Shown: one piece after another, positions 3-8,729 of the stretch
How positions within the stretch are numbered: position 1 is the first letter of the stretch
Layout of the letters: every line of letters begins with the position of its first letter
Source: Candidatus Woesebacteria bacterium
Lineage (GTDB): Bacteria; Patescibacteriota; Microgenomatia; UBA8517
Length of the DNA: 64,000 nucleotides
Reading direction: 5' to 3'
NCBI GenBank assembly: GCA_016432525.1
Contig: CP066693.1
Location: 416,815 to 480,814, forward strand
Notes under the pieces: generated by a model
Databases searched by the model: none
Seen by the model: the letters and a program-made list of their open reading frames with translations, nothing else
Told to the model about the DNA's origin: nothing
Translations under genes and position numbers: made by a program

Positions 3-545
3 ATAAACACCCAAAATTGGCACAATTCCCTCGCCATACTCTTTCAAGAATTTGAAAAATACCCATTTAGTGCAAAAGAAACAATCGGCTATGGAGATAT
101 CGAAAGAATACATACAGATGAAGATATAAAAGAAGCAGCCAAAAAAACAAACATAGATGAGTTTATTGAAGATCTTGAACTAAAATACAAGAATCCTCTA
201 GATCCACAGTTTGAAAAAGGTGTAAGCCCTTCAGTTGGTCAATGGCAAAGACTTGGAATATCAAGGATGCTTTTTAGAAAAAACGCAAGAATAATTATTA
301 TGGATGAACCAACAAGTAATGTAGATCCAGAAGCCGAAGAAAAAATATTTAAAGAATTAACAAAAAAGACTAAAGACAAAATTTTAATTTTTGTTACCCA
401 AAGGTTTTCAACAGTGCGCCTTGCAGATAGAATATTTGTAGTAGACAAGGGGAGAATAATCGAAAATGGAACACATTCTGATCTTATGAAAAAAGCCGGC
501 ACTTATGCAAAACTTTTCAACCTTCAAGCCAAAGGCTACAAATAA
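3..545 (+). CDS. ABC transporter ATP-binding domain, C-terminal part of an exporter (5' end outside window)
   Basis: Frame 3 is open from position 3. The translation carries an ABC signature-like GVSPSVGQWQRLGISR, a Walker B IIIMDEPTS, and a D-loop/H-loop region. The 267..545 ORF is the tail of this frame. Confidence 0.8.
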   Translation: MNTQNWHNSLAILFQEFEKYPFSAKETIGYGDIERIHTDEDIKEAAKKTNIDEFIEDLELKYKNPLDPQFEKGVSPSVGQWQRLGISRMLFRKNARIIIMDEPTSNVDPEAEEKIFKELTKKTKDKILIFVTQRFSTVRLADRIFVVDKGRIIENGTHSDLMKKAGTYAKLFNLQAKGYK

Positions 546-1514: not shown

Positions 1515-2309
1515 TTATCTATTTCTCTCATTGCTAACAAAAGCAATAGTTCCAATTGAAATAAAAAGCAAAAACATAGCTCCAATTACAACCAAATCAA
1601 TTAATGTACTGAATAAAACTGTTTTTGAATACTCGGCCATACCTGTATAAAAAACAGATCTTACAAGATCAACTGCATAAGTCATTGGCGCAATTCTTGA
1701 AAGAACTAAAAGTGCTGGAGGCAGATTTTTAACTGGTCCAAAAACTCCAGCCAAGAAAAATTGTGGAAAAATCACAAATGGGAATATTTGATTAGCAGCT
1801 CTTTGAGATTTTAAATTTGATAAAACAAATACACCAAAAGCGCCTCCCAGTGCACAAACAATTAATGCAAATGGAGCAAGGCGTAAAAACTCAAAAACAG
1901 TTAAATGCACTCCCATTACAAACCCAAAAAGAAAAACCCCAATCCCTTGGGTTAAAGCAACCAAAGATTCTCCTAAAATTTTCCCAACAATTATTGAGTA
2001 ACGTGATATTGGAGACACAAAAATCTCCTGAGAAAAATCATTTTCTCTATCTTCAATTAATGAAATCACACCTGATGCAGTTGACTGGAAAAGCGTTTGT
2101 CCTAAAACTCCTATAAAAATAAACGTCAAAAAATTATATCCAGCATTTGCTCCCAAATTTGATTGCAAGCTTGATCCCAATATTCCCACAAAAACAAAAG
2201 GAAATATAAAAGTTGCGATAATGCGCCCGCGATCCCTCAAAAACTTTGAAAAATCCCTATAAGCTATAGTTAGTATTGCGTTTACTTCATGCATGGTTAT
2301 TATTCTCAA
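1515..2309 (-). CDS. ABC-2 type transporter permease
   Basis: 264 aa with six predicted TM helices. It overlaps the upstream ATPase gene by 23 nt, consistent with translational coupling. Confidence 0.75.
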   Translation of the reverse strand: MRIITMHEVNAILTIAYRDFSKFLRDRGRIIATFIFPFVFVGILGSSLQSNLGANAGYNFLTFIFIGVLGQTLFQSTASGVISLIEDRENDFSQEIFVSPISRYSIIVGKILGESLVALTQGIGVFLFGFVMGVHLTVFEFLRLAPFALIVCALGGAFGVFVLSNLKSQRAANQIFPFVIFPQFFLAGVFGPVKNLPPALLVLSRIAPMTYAVDLVRSVFYTGMAEYSKTVLFSTLIDLVVIGAMFLLFISIGTIAFVSNERNR

Positions 2310-3228
2310 TTATTTCCAAATAAGCATCTTCAAGTGTAGGATTATGAATATCCAAATAATTTAAAGGTGTCTTTATAGAAGAAATTACTTTTTGAGGATT
2401 TTTGCCTCTAAGATTAATCATAATATTTTCCTTTTCTTCAAAATTAAGTTTTAATTTTTTAAGCTCAGAAATAAGTTTCCTCTTACTTTTTGAATCCACC
2501 AATAAATAATTTTTGATTAATTCCTTTTTAATTTTAGAAGGAGTTCCGGAAGAAACAATTTTTCCTTTGTTAATTATAAACACATGATCAGCTCCTTCAG
2601 CCTCCTCCAAATAATGAGTTGTTAAAAAAATTGTAGTTTTTTCACTCTTTCGAACTTCATTTAAATATTGCCATAAATTTTTTCTTGAAAGTGGATCAAG
2701 CCCACTTGTTGGTTCATCTAAAAATAAAATTTTTGGTTTATGGATTAAACTCCTCATAATTTCAAGTTTTCTCTTCATTCCACCTGAAAAAGTTTTTATA
2801 GGTTTAAAAATATCTTTCTGGATTCCCAAAATCTCAGAAAGTTCATATACTTTCTTCTGATAAGCCTTACTCATAAATCCAAAAGTTGGTGCAAAAGGAT
2901 AAATTCCATACAAAATTGCATGAAATCTGACATTCTCCTCAGCTGTTAAATTCTGGTCTAAGCTTGGATTCTGAAAAATTATTCCAATCGATTTTCTAAC
3001 TTCCTTTTGATTCTTATCTAAATCATATCCAGCCAAGCTCACTTTTCCAGAAGTTTTAGACAGTGTTGTTGTAAGAATTGAAATAGTAGTTGTTTTCCCA
3101 GCTCCATTAGGACCCAAAAAAGAAAAAAACTCTCCCTCTGAAACATCAAATGTGATATCATCTACTGCATTTGTATTTGCTTTGTTGTATTTCTTAACTA
3201 ATCGAGAGACATCAATTATTTTGCCCAT
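2287..3228 (-). CDS. ABC transporter ATP-binding protein
   Basis: Walker A GPNGAGKTT, signature SGGMKRKLEIMRS, Walker B LFLDEPTSGLD, H-loop TTHYLEEA. Confidence 0.9.
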   Translation of the reverse strand: MGKIIDVSRLVKKYNKANTNAVDDITFDVSEGEFFSFLGPNGAGKTTTISILTTTLSKTSGKVSLAGYDLDKNQKEVRKSIGIIFQNPSLDQNLTAEENVRFHAILYGIYPFAPTFGFMSKAYQKKVYELSEILGIQKDIFKPIKTFSGGMKRKLEIMRSLIHKPKILFLDEPTSGLDPLSRKNLWQYLNEVRKSEKTTIFLTTHYLEEAEGADHVFIINKGKIVSSGTPSKIKKELIKNYLLVDSKSKRKLISELKKLKLNFEEKENIMINLRGKNPQKVISSIKTPLNYLDIHNPTLEDAYLEIIENNNHA

Positions 3229-3241
3229 ACAAGTATTTTAC

Positions 3242-3269
3242 ACTGGCACTAAGAAGATTCAATTGCTAA
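3242..3269. repeat. 28-bp direct repeat, copy 1 (ACTGGCACTAAGAAGATTCAATTGCTAA)
   Basis: Matches 5923-5950 with one mismatch. It sits between the HExxH gene stop and the ABC ATPase start. Confidence 0.6.
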
Positions 3270-4112
3270 TTATATAATAAAACCATTAAGAAGTTTGTCT
3301 GGCCATTCTTTTTTATATTTATCTACAATTATTCTTCCGAAAACTTTCGTAAAATTATGTGGATCGTCAACAATCACAGAGTCCTCTTTCTCAAGATTTT
3401 TATCTTTTTCTTTTTTTGCAAAAATACGAAGCGTGTTAATTTCTGAAACTTTTAAATCTTCCAAAAAATTAACCCAAAATATTTTTGATGCACTATATTC
3501 AACAGAGTATGCAAATAACTCTGACATAAATTGATGCAATTCTCCAAAATAAGGAAAACGAATTTGACCATTAAGAACACTGTCTTCGCCCATTAAATAA
3601 TTGATACTATTATTGATATATTTCAAATTTTCATCTTTATTTGCCAGAAACCATAATTTATGCCTGTTGTAATATATATGTGCATATTCATGAACAATTG
3701 TTGCTATATAACTTTCTTTTGATTTATAAGGAGATTCAACAATCTTTTCATGAATATTTTTAAAATCACTAAATAATGACCCAAACGGTGTTTCATCGTT
3801 TGGCAAAATTTTCTTAATAATCTCATTTATTTTATTTATATAAATTCCTGCGGACCATTTTTTGAAATCTCTAAAACCAAACTCAAAATTGTTTGATAAT
3901 TTATATACATTAATATCTTTTTTTGAAAAAATTTTATCTAATAATATTTTCCTTTCAGAAAAAATATATAAATTATTTTTATCAAAACTAATTGGAGAGA
4001 TGTTTTTTAGAAATTTCTTATCAAAAAAAATATAATCTAATTTAGGATCACGAACAACCAACATTCCTTCGATAATTGCTTCAAAATCAGAATCATTTGT
4101 CATAACTGTCAT
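3270..4112 (-). CDS. HExxH-motif protein, putative zinc metallopeptidase (candidate leader peptidase)
   Basis: 280 aa containing TIVHEYAHIYY (HExxH). It is divergent from the rSAM gene and shares a 74-nt AT-rich intergenic region with it. No signal peptide. Confidence 0.5.
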   Translation of the reverse strand: MTVMTNDSDFEAIIEGMLVVRDPKLDYIFFDKKFLKNISPISFDKNNLYIFSERKILLDKIFSKKDINVYKLSNNFEFGFRDFKKWSAGIYINKINEIIKKILPNDETPFGSLFSDFKNIHEKIVESPYKSKESYIATIVHEYAHIYYNRHKLWFLANKDENLKYINNSINYLMGEDSVLNGQIRFPYFGELHQFMSELFAYSVEYSASKIFWVNFLEDLKVSEINTLRIFAKKEKDKNLEKEDSVIVDDPHNFTKVFGRIIVDKYKKEWPDKLLNGFII

Positions 4113-4201
4113 TTTAGCTTAAATTTATATCAATATGATACAATATCGCTGGTAATAAAATACTATACTAGGTACCTTAACAAAGGTTGAAAGGTTGCAA
4201 A

Positions 4202-5581
4202 ATGAAGAGCTTTCGTCTGAAAGATGGTGTTTTTTTTGTAAAAGGAGCACTGAATGGTGCCCTTTTAGACACTACTACAGGTAATGTCTATTCAATAAAC
4301 CAAATTGCTGTTTCGATAATAACCAAGGAAAAAGAAAATCAAGAATATTGGGAAAAACTTATCCAAATGAAATTGGCTGAAGAATGCTCCGTCGCTAGTT
4401 CATTACCAGACATACCTCGAATGTCCTCAATAAGTTTAAAATTTGTCTGGTTTGAAATAATATCAAACGATTGCAACGAATCATGTATACACTGTTATGC
4501 AGAAAGTATGCCGCCGTCTCATAGAAAAGCACTTGGACTTGTTGATATCTCAGGAGAAAACAAAACAAAATTAAAGCTAACTTATGCGGATTGGGTAAAA
4601 TACATTCAAGAAGCATATGATCTGGGATGCCGAAGATGTCAATTTATCGGTGGCGAACCCTTTGTTTACAAAGAAGGAGACAAAACAGTTCTAGATCTAG
4701 CAAGTTTTGCTAAAGAAATTGGCTATGAGTTTGTTGAAATTTTCACCAATGCGACTTTGCTGACACATGAGAAAATCGACAGAATAAAAAGACTAAACCT
4801 AAACGTTGCAGTTTCATTATATTCTCATGATCCACAGATTCATGATTCAATTACACAAACACCAGGTAGTCATTCGAGGACGGTTCAAAATCTCAAGTCG
4901 TTAAAATTAGCAGGAGTTAAAACTCGTGTAGAAATTGTAATAATGAAACAAAACCAAAACACGATTGAAGAAACACAGATTCTAATTAAAGACATTGGTT
5001 TTAGTGGCAAACATCCTGATCCAATTCGACCAAAAGGAAGGGGAGATAATTTGAGCATTAGACCAGATCCTGAAAAAACAGTCGAATATGGTTACATGAC
5101 AAAGCCAAATTTTACAGCTAACAAAAACACAATTGCACACTATTCAAAAGGTCATAGTTGCTTGGCTGGAAAAATAACATTAACTGATTCTGGAGACATA
5201 CTACCATGCATATTCTCTCGTAATCACATAATCGGCAATGTATTAAAAGTGGCCTCATTGGAGTCGATATTGTTGAGCGAAGCTATGCAACAAGTATGGA
5301 ACACAACTAAAGACAGTGTCCTAGTTTGTCGCGACTGTGAATATCGCTACGTATGCTTTGATTGTAGGCCTCTTTCGGAAGCAGCAGCAAGCGGAAATTC
5401 TGATTATATGCATGCCCCATATCCACGTTGTACACATAATCCATATACAGGAGAATGGGCAAAGGGCACATGGAGAGTAAACGAAAAAGGAGAACCTTGG
5501 TATGATCGATCCATAGAACCCATTATAAATATGGTTATAGAAAAAAGAGGATTTAAATCAACTCAACCTTCTGGTCATTAA
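4202..5581 (+). CDS. Radical SAM/SPASM-domain peptide maturase with N-terminal PqqD-like RRE
   Basis: CNESCIHC (CX3CX2C) radical SAM cluster motif. C-terminal Cys cluster CRDCEYRYVCFDC...C typical of SPASM/twitch domains. The N-terminus GNVYSINQIAVSI resembles the PqqD-like RiPP recognition element. ATG at 4202 is preferred over TTG at 4187. Confidence 0.85.
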   Translation: MKSFRLKDGVFFVKGALNGALLDTTTGNVYSINQIAVSIITKEKENQEYWEKLIQMKLAEECSVASSLPDIPRMSSISLKFVWFEIISNDCNESCIHCYAESMPPSHRKALGLVDISGENKTKLKLTYADWVKYIQEAYDLGCRRCQFIGGEPFVYKEGDKTVLDLASFAKEIGYEFVEIFTNATLLTHEKIDRIKRLNLNVAVSLYSHDPQIHDSITQTPGSHSRTVQNLKSLKLAGVKTRVEIVIMKQNQNTIEETQILIKDIGFSGKHPDPIRPKGRGDNLSIRPDPEKTVEYGYMTKPNFTANKNTIAHYSKGHSCLAGKITLTDSGDILPCIFSRNHIIGNVLKVASLESILLSEAMQQVWNTTKDSVLVCRDCEYRYVCFDCRPLSEAAASGNSDYMHAPYPRCTHNPYTGEWAKGTWRVNEKGEPWYDRSIEPIINMVIEKRGFKSTQPSGH

Positions 5582-5605
5582 CCAACAACATATAAAGGAG
5601 AAAAA

Positions 5606-5866
5606 ATGTCAATAAAAATAATCGAAGAACCAACAATCATTCTAGTTTCACCTCGAATTGTAAACTACTGCGCGCCTGAACAAGGAGATTGTGGTCCAGA
5701 TCACACCTGTTCACCTGATCAAAATTGTTCACCAGATCAAGAAGAATATTACTGCGGACCAGAAACAACAACTTGTGGCCCAGATTTACGAACTCCAGAG
5801 CCTGAGTATACTTGTGGTCCTGAACAAGGAGATTGTGGTCCAGATCACACCTGTTCACCTGATTAG
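5606..5866 (+). CDS. Cys-rich repeat peptide, putative RiPP precursor (9 x C-[AGS]-P-[DE])
   Basis: Strong RBS AAAGGAG 7 nt upstream. An about 20-aa leader-like N-terminus is followed by a core with nine Cys, each followed by x-Pro-Asp/Glu. It lies immediately downstream of the rSAM/SPASM gene. A 42-bp internal DNA duplication occurs at 5683-5724 and 5822-5863. Confidence 0.7.
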   Translation: MSIKIIEEPTIILVSPRIVNYCAPEQGDCGPDHTCSPDQNCSPDQEEYYCGPETTTCGPDLRTPEPEYTCGPEQGDCGPDHTCSPD

Positions 5867-5881
5867 TCATGGACGCATAAC

Positions 5882-5918
5882 CGGTTAGATAATCAAAATC
5901 TAGCCGGTTTTTTATTTA
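5882..5918 (+). terminator. Rho-independent terminator after precursor gene
   Basis: Stem CCGGTTAGAT / ATCTAGCCGG followed by TTTTTTATTTATT. Confidence 0.6.
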
Positions 5919-5922
5919 TTGT

Positions 5923-5950
5923 ACTGGCACTAAGAAGATTCAACTGCTAA
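5923..5950. repeat. 28-bp direct repeat, copy 2 (ACTGGCACTAAGAAGATTCAACTGCTAA)
   Basis: 27/28 identity with 3242-3269. Located just after the precursor-gene terminator. Confidence 0.6.
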
Positions 5951-6020
5951 AATAAAGCTGTCTATTGCTATATTTAAATGATTTTAGGATAATATCATGC
6001 CTCTGCTAAAATAACTGTAT

Positions 6021-8729
6021 ATGATTAAAAACTTTTTAAAAGGAATAATAGATATTAACCAAAAAGAAGTTGCGCACCTTCAAAAGGTTGTGGATAAAGT
6101 TAATCTCCATGAAGCAAAATACAAAAAATTCAAATTAACTGACTTCCCAAAAGAAACTAAAAAATTCCAAAAAAGGATTGAAGAAGGGGAAATTCTGGAA
6201 AGTATCCTTCCTGAAGCCTTTGCACTCGTCAGAGAGGCATCAGATAGAGCCATAGGTCTAAGGCATTATGATGTCCAGCTGATGGCAGCTGTAGCACTTT
6301 TTGAAGGCAAAGTTGCTGAGCAAAAAACAGGGGAAGGAAAGACCTTATCAGCCGTCCCAGCTTTATATCTTCGTGCTATAACAGGTAAAGGAGTTCATCT
6401 TGTTACTGTCAATGATTATCTTGCTCGCCGTGATGCTGGTTGGAATGCTCCAATTTTTCATCTTTTGGGATTAACTGTTGGCTCAATTATTCAAGAAAAC
6501 AAATCTTTTGTCTACGATCCTAATTTTACCGACAATAGCCATGGCGACGAGCGTCTTTCCCATTTAAAGCCAACTGAAAGAAAAAAGGCTTATGAGGCAG
6601 ACATTACTTATGGAACTAATAATGAATTTGGTTTTGATTATTTAAGAGATAATATGGTTGGATCTCTCACAGAAATGGCTCAGCGTGGTCATTATTTTGC
6701 AATTGTTGACGAGGTCGATTCAGTGCTTATTGATGAGGCCCGTACTCCTCTTATTATCTCAGCTCCAGATATGGAGCCCACTGATAAATATTATAAATTC
6801 GCATCAATTATAGATAAATTAGTTCCAGATACTGATTATGAAATAGACGAAAAGATGAAAAGTGCAACTCTCACTGAAGACGGAATCGCAAAAATAGAAA
6901 AAATCCTAAAAGTTGATAATTTATACGAAAAAGATTTTGATGCAATTCACCACATTGAAAACGCTCTTCGAGCAAGATCACTGTATCTTCTTGATCGAGA
7001 TTATGTAGTAAAAGATGGCCAGGTAATAATAGTTGATGAATTTACAGGCCGTCTTATGTTTGGACGTCGTTGGAGCGATGGTCTTCACCAGGCAGTTGAA
7101 GCAAAAGAAGGAGTAACTATTCAACAGGAAAGTAAAACCTTAGCAACCATCTCTTTCCAGAATTACTTCAGAATGTATGAAGTTTTATCAGGAATGACAG
7201 GAACAGCTCTAACTGAGGCTGATGAGTTCAAAAAAATCTATGAAATAGAAGTTGTTGCAATTCCAACCAATATGCCAATGGTAAGAAAAGATAAATCAGA
7301 TGCAATTTATAAAACCATCAAGGCCAAATACGAAGCAGTTGCCAATCGAATTGCCGATCTTCACAAAAAAGGACAGCCTGTTCTTGTAGGTACTACATCA
7401 ATTGAGAAAAATGAAATCATTTCAGAATTTCTTAAAAGCAAAAAAATTCCCCACAACGTCTTAAACGCCAAAAACCACGAAAAAGAAGCTATGATTTTAG
7501 CCGAAGCAGGAAAGCCAGGAGGCGTGACTGTTGCAACCAATATGGCAGGCCGTGGAGTTGATATTATATTAGGAGGCGCCTCTCCAAGTAAAAAATCAAA
7601 GCAATATAAAACCTGGGAAAAAAATCATGAAAAAGTAGTAAAAGCAGGAGGGCTTTTTGTTTTGGGAACAGAGCGTCATGAGTCTCGCCGTATCGATAAC
7701 CAGCTTCGAGGTCGTTCTGGTCGTCAAGGCGATCCAGGCACTACTCAATTCTTTCTTTCCTTGGAAGATGATCTAATGAGAGTTTTTGGAGGAACCCAAA
7801 TTGCAAGTATTATGGATAGACTCAGACTTCCAGATAATGAGCCAATTGAAAATAGATTGGTTTCAAGAGCAATTGAATCAGCCCAAATAAAAGTTGAAGG
7901 ATTCCACTTTGACGCCAGGAAAAGAGTTGTCGAATATGATGATGTAGCCAATCAGCAAAGAGATATTGTTTACAAATTAAGACGAAGAATTCTTGAGTCA
8001 AACAATGTCAAAGACGAAGTTTTAGAAAAGCTCGATAATCAAGTTGATCGAATCCTCTTAAAATATGCTCCCTTAGAAAATCAACGGAAAGGTTTCAAAA
8101 AAGAAGTTAAAGATCTCCAAATATCAAAAGAAAATGCAGAAACAATTGCAGTTTCTCTAGCTGATACGATTCCTTTTGACGATGCCTCAGTTAAGGCAAT
8201 TGCAAAACAACTCGAAAAATTCAAAAGCCATTCAAAACTTCAAGAATTTCTTAAGAAATTAATTCTAGATACACATCAAAGTCGCGAATCCCAACTAAAA
8301 CCAGAAGGCATGAGGCTTGTTGAAAAATATGCATATCTAAACTCAATTGACCATTTGTGGATTGACCATCTTGACCAAATAGATGACCTACGAGAAGGAA
8401 TTAACTTAAGAGCTTATGGCCAAAGAGATCCATTAGTTGAGTTTAAAAACGAAGCGTATGACCTCTTTGAAACTTTGATAGATAAAATTGATGAAGAGTT
8501 AGCCCATAGAATTTTTAGGATGAATATAATGCCAAACCCCCAAACCGAAATTCCGGTTAATCTAGCTCAAACAAATGAAGATTTATCGGACAATATCGGA
8601 TTAGCAGATTCCCCTCAAAGGAAAAAAATTATCAAACGAACTGGCTCCAAAATGGGTCGAAACGACCCCTGTTGGTGTGGAAGCGGTAAAAAATGGAAAA
8701 AATGCCACTACCCTCAATTACCTTCTTGA
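6021..8729 (+). CDS. secA: Preprotein translocase ATPase SecA
   Basis: 902 aa. DEAD-like motor motifs (AEQKTGEGKT, VDEVDSVLIDEA), preprotein cross-linking and wing/scaffold regions, C-terminal zinc finger CWCGSGKKWKKCH. Confidence 0.95.
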   Translation: MIKNFLKGIIDINQKEVAHLQKVVDKVNLHEAKYKKFKLTDFPKETKKFQKRIEEGEILESILPEAFALVREASDRAIGLRHYDVQLMAAVALFEGKVAEQKTGEGKTLSAVPALYLRAITGKGVHLVTVNDYLARRDAGWNAPIFHLLGLTVGSIIQENKSFVYDPNFTDNSHGDERLSHLKPTERKKAYEADITYGTNNEFGFDYLRDNMVGSLTEMAQRGHYFAIVDEVDSVLIDEARTPLIISAPDMEPTDKYYKFASIIDKLVPDTDYEIDEKMKSATLTEDGIAKIEKILKVDNLYEKDFDAIHHIENALRARSLYLLDRDYVVKDGQVIIVDEFTGRLMFGRRWSDGLHQAVEAKEGVTIQQESKTLATISFQNYFRMYEVLSGMTGTALTEADEFKKIYEIEVVAIPTNMPMVRKDKSDAIYKTIKAKYEAVANRIADLHKKGQPVLVGTTSIEKNEIISEFLKSKKIPHNVLNAKNHEKEAMILAEAGKPGGVTVATNMAGRGVDIILGGASPSKKSKQYKTWEKNHEKVVKAGGLFVLGTERHESRRIDNQLRGRSGRQGDPGTTQFFLSLEDDLMRVFGGTQIASIMDRLRLPDNEPIENRLVSRAIESAQIKVEGFHFDARKRVVEYDDVANQQRDIVYKLRRRILESNNVKDEVLEKLDNQVDRILLKYAPLENQRKGFKKEVKDLQISKENAETIAVSLADTIPFDDASVKAIAKQLEKFKSHSKLQEFLKKLILDTHQSRESQLKPEGMRLVEKYAYLNSIDHLWIDHLDQIDDLREGINLRAYGQRDPLVEFKNEAYDLFETLIDKIDEELAHRIFRMNIMPNPQTEIPVNLAQTNEDLSDNIGLADSPQRKKIIKRTGSKMGRNDPCWCGSGKKWKKCHYPQLPS

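Follow-up and report, generated by a model that had tools for sequence, protein, structure and literature searches.

The window analyzed here is a stretch of 64,000 nucleotides from a 916-kb contig of Candidatus Woesebacteria. It contains a compact locus in which the gene of a radical S-adenosylmethionine (SAM) enzyme with SPASM-type cysteines lies directly upstream from a small open reading frame (ORF), encoding a peptide built of Cys-x-Pro (C-x-P) units, and is divergent from a gene encoding an HExxH protein. We conclude that the locus is very probably a maturase-precursor-peptidase module of the type that makes ribosomally synthesized, post-translationally modified peptides (RiPPs). An original prediction, made from the letters of the window alone, had proposed a RiPP-type cassette comprising these three genes and a pair of ATP-binding cassette (ABC) transporter genes. 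All five ORFs are present, and comparative data from 33 loci strengthen the RiPP-type reading of the enzyme, the adjacent Cys-repeat peptide, and the HExxH protein. The Patescibacteria-type host that had been proposed is in agreement with the origin of the contig.

The Cys-x-Pro peptide and its relatives

All nine Cys residues of the window peptide occur in C-x-P units, each with Asp or Glu at position +3. The background frequency of this arrangement is 3% (6 of the 194 Cys residues encoded by the long ORFs of the window). The stop codon of the enzyme gene and the peptide ORF are 24 nucleotides apart, and an AAGGAG sequence 5 nucleotides upstream from the ATG codon is in keeping with the strong ribosome binding that had been attributed to this ORF. 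Its core contains two exact copies of a 45-nucleotide segment, suggesting a very recent internal duplication of core units and modular growth of the core. Tandem Repeats Finder detected nothing in the peptide gene, the repeat being dispersed rather than tandem. The window peptide had no match among the NCBIfam and Pfam models at E ≤ 0.1, and a word-indexed protein search returned only the peptide itself.

Relatives of the peptide were found through genomic context, the word-indexed search being unproductive. A single scan of species-representative genomes yielded 47 loci, including the close relatives L001 to L032 and L034 (38 to 66% identity). Conservation of the peptide frame alongside the enzyme had been named in the original prediction as a comparison that could refute it, and it is borne out here. 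A small ORF with a leader motif and a C-x-P core adjoins the enzyme gene in all 33 complete loci, the hosts being Woese-, Roizman-, Ames-, Curtiss-, Levyi-, and Dojkabacteria, WWE3, and Chloroflexota. The 30 aligned peptides are all encoded by the strand of the enzyme gene, with a Shine-Dalgarno-like motif 4 to 19 nucleotides upstream. Twenty-six of them begin between −11 and +209 nucleotides from the enzyme stop codon, most within about 100 nucleotides. The other four are located upstream from the enzyme gene; the order in L016, L017, and L021 is peptide, HExxH protein, and enzyme.

The leader of the family contains the motif E-[EK]-P-[TE]-[IL]-x-L-V-[TS], which reads EEPTIILVS in the window peptide. 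It is separated by 7 to 25 residues from a core of 2 to 13 C-x-P units. The cores vary in both length and sequence and the leaders are conserved, which is the usual pattern of RiPP precursors. In 31 sequences, 184 of the 196 Cys residues (94%) belong to C-x-P units, and Cys and Pro (+2) are, at this level, the only invariant core positions. Position +1 is free. The residues most often found at position +3 are Asp (40), Asn (28), Ala (19), Thr (15), Ser (14), Arg (12), Gln (10), and Glu (9). Position +4 is often occupied by the next Cys, and by Arg in 6 of 181 units. At E ≤ 1, the 30 family peptides matched no NCBIfam peptide model, whether that of the SCIFF precursor (TIGR03973) or of any curated radical SAM target-peptide family. 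In the peptides of seven loci (L005, L006, L009, L010, L012, L025, and L032), the C-x-P units are followed by a proline-rich tail, PP(G/K)PP(K)P(G)P[NH], possibly a second conserved, C-terminal element in a subgroup of precursors.

Three proteins of 514 to 539 residues (P0007, P0013, and P0032) combine in a single ORF the enzyme, a leader motif (PEITLVT or PELTLVT), and a C-x-P core. They may be true fusions, or result from read-through or assembly artefacts. Taken together, the conserved leader, the hypervariable repeat core, the strict adjacency of the two genes, and the fusions leave a maturase-substrate relationship as the only economical reading.

The radical SAM/SPASM enzyme and its distant actinobacterial relatives

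The enzyme is a member of the radical SAM superfamily, as had been proposed (Pfam PF04055, 73.5 bits for a gathering cut-off of 29.5, E = 2.9e-20). Residues 91 to 98 (CNESCIHC) provide the CX3CX2C motif, which is invariant in 120 homologs. The SPASM subfamily is defined by the arrangement CX9-15GX4C ... CX2CX5CX3C ... C. The window enzyme displays this arrangement as C320-X15-C336 (with GX4C), C376-X2-C379-X5-C385-X2-C388, and C410, the last spacing of the central cluster being X2, not X3. Alignments of 18 and of 120 members show C91, C95, C98, and the seven SPASM Cys residues to be invariant. The Pfam SPASM model matched 100 of 102 family members (best E value of 9e-10), the window protein itself not being matched, and the best NCBIfam match of the window enzyme was with TIGR04193, in the C-terminal portion that comprises SPASM (E = 5e-23). 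The SPASM part of the original prediction thus stands. The next NCBIfam matches were generic SPASM relatives, AhbD, NirJ2, AlbA (NF012164, 65.4 bits for a cut-off of 850), and StsB (NF045574, 63.6 bits for a cut-off of 625). PapB (NF047865), the SCIFF maturase, and anSME (TIGR03942) were absent from the best 25 matches. Relatives in public proteins form 443 clusters that are 50 to 67% identical over the full length; those with a named host are from Woesebacteria, Roizmanbacteria, Amesbacteria, WWE3, the 'Patescibacteria group', and one Chloroflexota. Judged by its sequence, the enzyme belongs firmly in the SPASM/twitch peptide-maturase neighborhood. The last residue of the enzyme (window positions 5579-5581) is His in most family members, preceded by a variable tail (consensus ...xxxH).

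The N-terminal region had been described as a PqqD-like RiPP recognition element (RRE), i.e. a leader-binding N-terminal winged-helix domain of three strands and three helices that is detected by PqqD and RRE models. This part of the claim did not receive significant support from hidden Markov models (HMMs). With the Pfam PqqD model, weak matches were obtained for a single full-length member out of 102 (E = 0.14) and for 2 of 13 isolated N-terminal domains (E = 0.053), and a profile of the domain matched nothing relevant among PDB sequences. Conserved residues are found in the first 80 positions (G9, G15, G19, A20, D23, S31, and N33), and the predicted model of residues 3 to 55 consists of four short strands followed by two helices. 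We take the segment GALLDTxTGxVYSINxxAxxIL to recall the strand-turn-strand-helix part of a PqqD-like RRE. Assignment of the domain as an RRE is plausible, based on the predicted fold pattern and on the logic of co-occurrence. This role is indirectly supported by distant actinobacterial homologs, since those that lack the N-terminal domain also lack a leader and carry C-x-P units in cis.

These homologs come from 14 further loci, all actinobacterial, encoding radical SAM proteins of about 325 residues that are 26 to 32% identical to the core of the enzyme and are devoid of the N-terminal domain. Nine of the corresponding ORFs (L036 to L043 and L046, located at about 4950-5960, e.g. L036:4953-5942), from Kribbella, Nonomuraea, Spongiactinospora, Sinosporangium, and Sphaerimonospora, end in 11 or 12 C-x-P units, as in NCAPNMCNPKCGPSCSPACRPQ...CNPARNCAPNKCRPTT. 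The tail starts at the position taken, in the enzymes of the candidate phyla radiation (CPR), by the second half of the SPASM motif, and the Pfam SPASM match runs into its first Cys residues. It could be a leaderless substrate fused in cis or a divergent Fe-S-binding tail. A leaderless cis substrate would explain the joint absence of the leader and of the N-terminal domain. Eleven actinobacterial loci share two conserved downstream genes, encoding an uncharacterized 283-residue protein and an AAA_21-type ATPase.

HExxH partners, locus layout, and neighboring genes

Homologs of the window HExxH protein (family 1) were found by tblastn and clustering beside the enzyme in 17 other loci, i.e. 18 with the window. 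The gene is usually convergent and located just past the peptide gene; L027 and L029 have it in the same orientation. Residues H138, E139, and H142 are invariant, and Y144, E195, C200, and Y203 nearly so. Sequence searches against Pfam, the PDB, and NCBIfam returned nothing significant, with faint zincin-type hints from Pfam and the PDB, and the word-indexed search with the window protein returned only the protein itself. An exhaustive HMMER search of 1.84 billion representatives indicated that family 1 is small and closed, comprising 84 clusters of proteins that are each 260 to 300 residues long. The predicted structure, with a predicted local distance difference test score (pLDDT) of 93, displays the gluzincin metallopeptidase fold of clan MA(E), which is thermolysin-like, with the HExxH motif on a helix and a conserved Glu further along the chain as the candidate third ligand of zinc. 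On the basis of this model, the family 1 protein is predicted to be a gluzincin-fold metallopeptidase and is a candidate leader peptidase. It is not assigned to the M1 aminopeptidases, as there is no GxMEN motif, the conserved Glu is located 52 residues past HExxH instead of 18, and Pfam Peptidase_M1 was not matched.

Ten CPR loci lacking family 1 contain instead a protein of about 250 residues with the pattern VYLVHEYLH ... EHAVIEL..DNELR.RLN (family 2), which has no match in Pfam or NCBIfam. Grouping of the two families was considered and rejected, since the hhalign probability was 0.7% and only the HExxH motif was aligned. Exchange between them appears at short evolutionary range. The enzymes of L007 and L008 are 82% identical and their leaders are nearly identical, and the HExxH families differ. 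Similarly, L001 to L003, the nearest relatives of the window, carry family 2 and the window carries family 1. That unrelated proteins resembling zinc peptidases replace each other as partners is in keeping with a general accessory function, for instance removal of the leader.

The coordinates of the features are collected in Table 1. The gene products HYS03_01725 (peptide) and HYS03_01735 (HExxH protein) are annotated as hypothetical proteins. The divergent gap of 89 nucleotides had been predicted to act as a shared promoter region. The gap itself is present and presumably holds both promoters; promoter-like matches in the region were found at chance level (21 for 20.6 expected), so that this part of the claim gained nothing from them. 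A terminator-like hairpin followed by a T-run closes the transcription unit formed by the enzyme and peptide genes. A second C-x-P ORF, a paralog of the radical SAM enzyme, and a family 2 HExxH gene were looked for in the window and none was found.

Table 1. Features of the module and of the adjoining genes (positions in the window).
Feature	Position	Strand	Basis or remark
ABC-2 type permease, DrrB-like	1515-2309	-	ABC2_membrane, E 1e-27
ABC transporter ATPase, DrrA-like	2287-3228	-	ABC_tran, E 3e-33
HExxH protein, family 1, 277-280 residues	3270-4112	-	motif VHEYAH
E195 of the HExxH protein, candidate third zinc ligand	3519-3521	-	
HEYAH motif of the HExxH protein	3678-3692	-	
Divergent intergenic region between HExxH and radical SAM genes, 89 nt	4113-4201		sequence read
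Putative radical SAM/SPASM peptide maturase, 459 residues	4202-5581	+	
N-terminal beta/alpha domain of the enzyme, about 80 residues (residues 1-83)	4202-4450	+	
CX3CX2C motif of the enzyme (C91, C95, C98)	4472-4495	+	
Seven-Cys SPASM motif of the enzyme (C320, C336, C376, C379, C385, C388, C410)	5159-5431	+	
Shine-Dalgarno sequence AAGGAG	5595-5600	+	5 nt 5' of the peptide ATG
Putative precursor peptide, 86 residues	5606-5866	+	ORF and ribosome binding site; NCBI HYS03_01725
Family motif EEPTIILVS in the peptide leader (leader: residues 1-21)	5624-5650	+	
Peptide core (residues 22-86), nine C-x-P-[D/E] units	5669-5863	+	
Exact 45-nt direct repeat, copy 1, encoding PEQGDCGPDHTCSPD	5675-5719	+	100% identity
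Exact 45-nt direct repeat, copy 2, ending the peptide ORF	5819-5863	+	100% identity
Terminator-like hairpin, 12 bp	5879-5909	+	T-run to 5919

The ABC genes are located past the HExxH gene, on its strand, as had been noted. The ATPase gene starts 41 nucleotides past the HExxH stop codon and overlaps the permease gene by 23 nucleotides; on the basis of this spacing, the pair could be co-transcribed with the HExxH gene. The pair is, by sequence similarity, of the generic, DrrAB-like ABC-2 type, with scores below the cut-offs of the DrrA (TIGR01188, 272 bits for 312) and DrrB (TIGR01247, 117 bits for 223) models. The surroundings of the enzyme gene were compared in 32 related loci, of which at least 15 are fully flanked, and no homolog of the ATPase or permease was detected at a distance of up to 5 kb. 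The ABC pair is therefore not part of the conserved core, and the original description of a canonical cassette including an exporter does not extend to the family. The pair may be a lineage-specific exporter or immunity add-on, its membership in the module being uncertain. Among the 34 loci analyzed, no ATP-grasp enzyme, exporter, or second tailoring enzyme recurs.

Several observations concern the surroundings of the module. Sensor histidine kinases are encoded within a few kb of it in six loci (L008:2134-3756, L017:2321-3748, L022:8727-10133, L024, L027:7340-9568, and L029:2666-4924), accompanied by response regulators in L017 and L022. They were rejected as a conserved partner because their sensor domains differ (PAS, GAF, or multiple transmembrane segments) and the similarity is generic. 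Their recurrence may be generic, and a link with peptide signaling is possible. A different second radical SAM/SPASM gene is located just past the module in L025 (7536-8906) and L031 (6700-7806), with GeoRSP_rSAM and AhbD as the best sub-threshold matches; L031 additionally encodes a separate HELLH protein (8029-8661). In the window, a further ABC ATPase domain is represented at 267-545 (+) by its C-terminal end, its gene running off the window start, and is followed by a spermidine-synthase-like methyltransferase gene (867-1514). Two ABC systems are therefore located less than 4 kb from the module. Downstream, the 150-nucleotide gap between the peptide terminator and secA contains a 25-nucleotide imperfect direct repeat (5931-5955 and 5990-6014, 76% identity, core CTGCTAAAATAA), which may be a regulatory element of secA.

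Proposed mechanism, alternatives, and significance

We propose a stepwise mechanism for the three-gene RiPP module, which we regard as moderately probable. The leader of the precursor would dock as a beta-strand on the small N-terminal domain of the enzyme. The enzyme would then act on the Cys residue of each C-x-P unit by 5'-deoxyadenosyl-radical chemistry, aided by two SPASM auxiliary Fe-S clusters. The most likely outcome of this step would be one intramolecular thioether per unit. In the window peptide, the sulfur of Cys would be linked to a carbon of the Asp or Glu residue at position +3, forming up to nine C-x-P-[D/E] rings (−2 Da each) analogous to the repeated C-x3-D rings made by PapB in freyrasin. 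The cytoplasmic gluzincin-fold HExxH protein would then cut off the leader. The neighboring DrrAB-like ABC-2 transporter may, solely in this genome, serve for export of the product or for protection against it. Thioether formation is the best-supported guess because the nearest maturases by structure (SkfB and CteB) use Cys-rich cores, because PapB makes Cys-Asp/Glu links in repeated motifs (PMC9413430), and because all nine window units have Asp or Glu at position +3. By this analogy, the chance that the product carries thioethers is slightly less than even.

Several points weigh against this interpretation. The chemistry is argued by analogy alone. The residue at position +3 is Asp, Asn, or Glu in only 77 of the 181 units (about 43%), Ala, Thr, Ser, and Arg being common, and Asp/Glu is therefore not a universal acceptor. 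No cut-off of an NCBIfam equivalog or characterized maturase was reached by the enzyme, the best 25 matches being at most 82 bits. Conservation of the enzyme across deep CPR lineages is unusually high (50 to 67% identity). The module also lacks a conserved exporter, an unusual situation for a RiPP that is secreted. Finally, no HExxH partner was detected in reach of the Chloroflexota loci (L004, L019, and L020) or in L028; the minimal unit is therefore the enzyme and the peptide.

The invariance of Cys and Pro (+2) alone leaves room for other chemistries, such as a sactionine-type link to the alpha carbon of residue +3, a link to Pro, or an anSME-like oxidation of Cys. It is unlikely, in our view, that the same architecture serves either abstraction of a Cys-beta hydrogen in the manner of anSME, which would generate formylglycine (about −18 Da per unit), or cross-linking of Cys to Pro (+2). 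Both options draw on these two sole invariant core positions and on a position +3 that is too variable for a single type of acceptor, and the sulfatase motif, with its C-x-P, hints at the former. Against anSME-like oxidation, the Arg residue at position +4 that defines the sulfatase motif is as rare here as indicated above, and TIGR03942 is outside the best 25 NCBIfam matches. The anSME enzymes have eight cluster-ligating Cys residues and are not known to have a leader-binding domain, compared to the seven conserved Cys of the SPASM region in the window enzyme. For the Cys-Pro thioether, we know of no precedent, including in sactipeptides and ranthipeptides. A different question is raised by the possibility that the C-x-P peptide is a metal- or Fe-S-binding partner of the enzyme rather than its substrate, acting as a scaffold, an electron donor, or a metallothionein-like protein. 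The actinobacterial tail, which lies within the enzyme ORF, starts exactly where the second SPASM half would be expected, and has its first Cys residues included in the Pfam SPASM match, points in this direction. Nonetheless, we consider this possibility very improbable, since the CPR enzymes already hold a complete seven-Cys SPASM motif, the number (2 to 13) and spacing of the units vary freely, unlike a defined cluster site, and the peptides have a conserved leader-like N-terminal motif and are accompanied by a peptidase.

The extent of the functional unit is also subject to alternatives. The five genes could form a single unit, in which the ABC pair would serve specifically to export an antimicrobial peptide or to make its producer immune to it. 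This fits the position of the ABC genes in what may be one operon with the HExxH gene, and sub-threshold matches were obtained with a lantibiotic protection ABC model (E = 3e-40), PmtA (E = 2e-34), and a SagH-type permease (E = 7e-16). We find it rather unlikely, given the absence of ABC homologs from the related loci and best family matches that are with generic DrrA and DrrB, also below cut-off. At the other extreme, chance juxtaposition with a small ORF that is not a real gene would account for the word-indexed search returning only the peptide itself. This explanation is refuted for practical purposes by the leader and C-x-P ORFs of all 33 loci, the Shine-Dalgarno-like motifs of all 30 aligned peptides, the concentration of the Cys residues of the window peptide in C-x-P units compared to the background, and the occurrence of enzyme-peptide fusions. 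A broader proposal is that the module represents a widespread, CPR-centered RiPP class of its own, defined by the Cys-x-Pro unit, with a chemistry unlike that of sactipeptides and ranthipeptides, and also including the actinobacterial leaderless fusions. The chemistry may then be a Cys-to-Pro cross-link or a serial anSME-type oxidation of Cys, and the product would be among the few specialized metabolites made by ultra-small episymbiotic bacteria, with their hosts as a possible target. We regard this proposal as doubtful, and retain the maturase-precursor-peptidase module with thioether formation as its tentative chemistry.

Such a module would work like a ranthipeptide or sactipeptide pathway, and the family-level tests for PapB, AlbA, StsB, SCIFF, and anSME all failed. 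Mature sactipeptides have the sulfur of Cys joined to the alpha carbon of an acceptor residue, and ranthipeptides have it joined to a beta or gamma carbon. CteB (SCIFF/thermocellin), SkfB, and AlbA consist of an N-terminal leader-binding domain, a radical SAM barrel, and a SPASM/twitch domain. The window enzyme would be similar in layout, and its seven SPASM-region Cys residues would be compatible with an open site for a substrate Cys. It differs by HMM scores that are far below the cut-offs (AlbA, 65 versus 850; StsB, 64 versus 625). The precursor is not similar to SCIFF or any NCBIfam peptide model, and its small in-line units contrast with the nested hairpin rings of sactipeptides. The anSME/AtsB enzymes are also radical SAM/SPASM proteins and modify a Cys in C-x-P-x-R. 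In contrast to the system described here, they act on folded sulfatases, with no known leader or N-terminal recognition domain; the +4 Arg is found here in only 6 of 181 units and the family HMM is not reached. AplP is an M1-type leader peptidase of class III lanthipeptides. Leader removal by the HExxH protein would parallel its action, and this protein resembles M1 and thermolysin-like gluzincins in having HExxH on a helix and a conserved Glu on a later helix. It differs in being a stand-alone protein of 277 residues with no Pfam or NCBIfam peptidase match.

Freyrasin, a ranthipeptide of Paenibacillus polymyxa produced by PapA/PapB, likewise involves a radical SAM/SPASM enzyme and a leader-bearing precursor whose core consists of short repeated Cys units. 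Six repeated C-x3-D/E motifs receive Cys-Asp/Glu thioethers from PapB, which accepts C-xn-D spacings with n from 0 to 6 (PMC9413430). The window peptide, for its part, carries nine units of the form C-x2-[D/E]. Their spacing is different and they enclose an invariant Pro, position +3 is often non-acidic in the family, and the PapB model is not reached. The host phylum is also different, and a gluzincin partner is present here. In the CPR, some ATP-grasp 'branch 2' loci contain a SPASM maturase and two distinct zincin peptidases, the precursor being unidentified in most of them (Makarova et al. 2022, PMC8939145). The SPASM-plus-zincin portion of these loci may be the same module as that described here, although no ATP-grasp gene recurs in the 34 loci and C-x-P precursors were not described in that study. 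Biosynthetic gene clusters are rarely reported in the CPR, with YcaO/LAP (linear azole-containing peptide) clusters and a lanthipeptide as reported cases (PMC7298704).

The original prediction had considered the system to be probably undescribed, and this is apparently so. The peptide and HExxH families have no curated model, and no description was found in the full-text literature, subscription-only papers being outside the scope of the search; an earlier bioinformatic listing is possible. The precursor family and both partner peptidase families are new, and the cross-link is possibly new. The enzyme class and the logic are familiar, radical SAM/SPASM maturases acting on Cys-rich peptides being already a well-known theme.

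The finding identifies a compact peptide-maturation module kept across many Microgenomates-type lineages and WWE3, with more than 400 enzyme clusters in public data. Rule-based genome mining is expected to miss it because the precursor family matches no curated model. If the proposed chemistry is correct, the RiPP repertoire would be extended by two leader-peptidase families and by a family of precursors that combine C-x-P repeats with a leader of the form E-P-x-I-x-L-V-T. The repeats would offer a short, modular, and naturally duplicating scaffold for enzymatic peptide macrocyclization. The module would also provide a handle on the chemical interaction of episymbiotic bacteria with their hosts or competitors.

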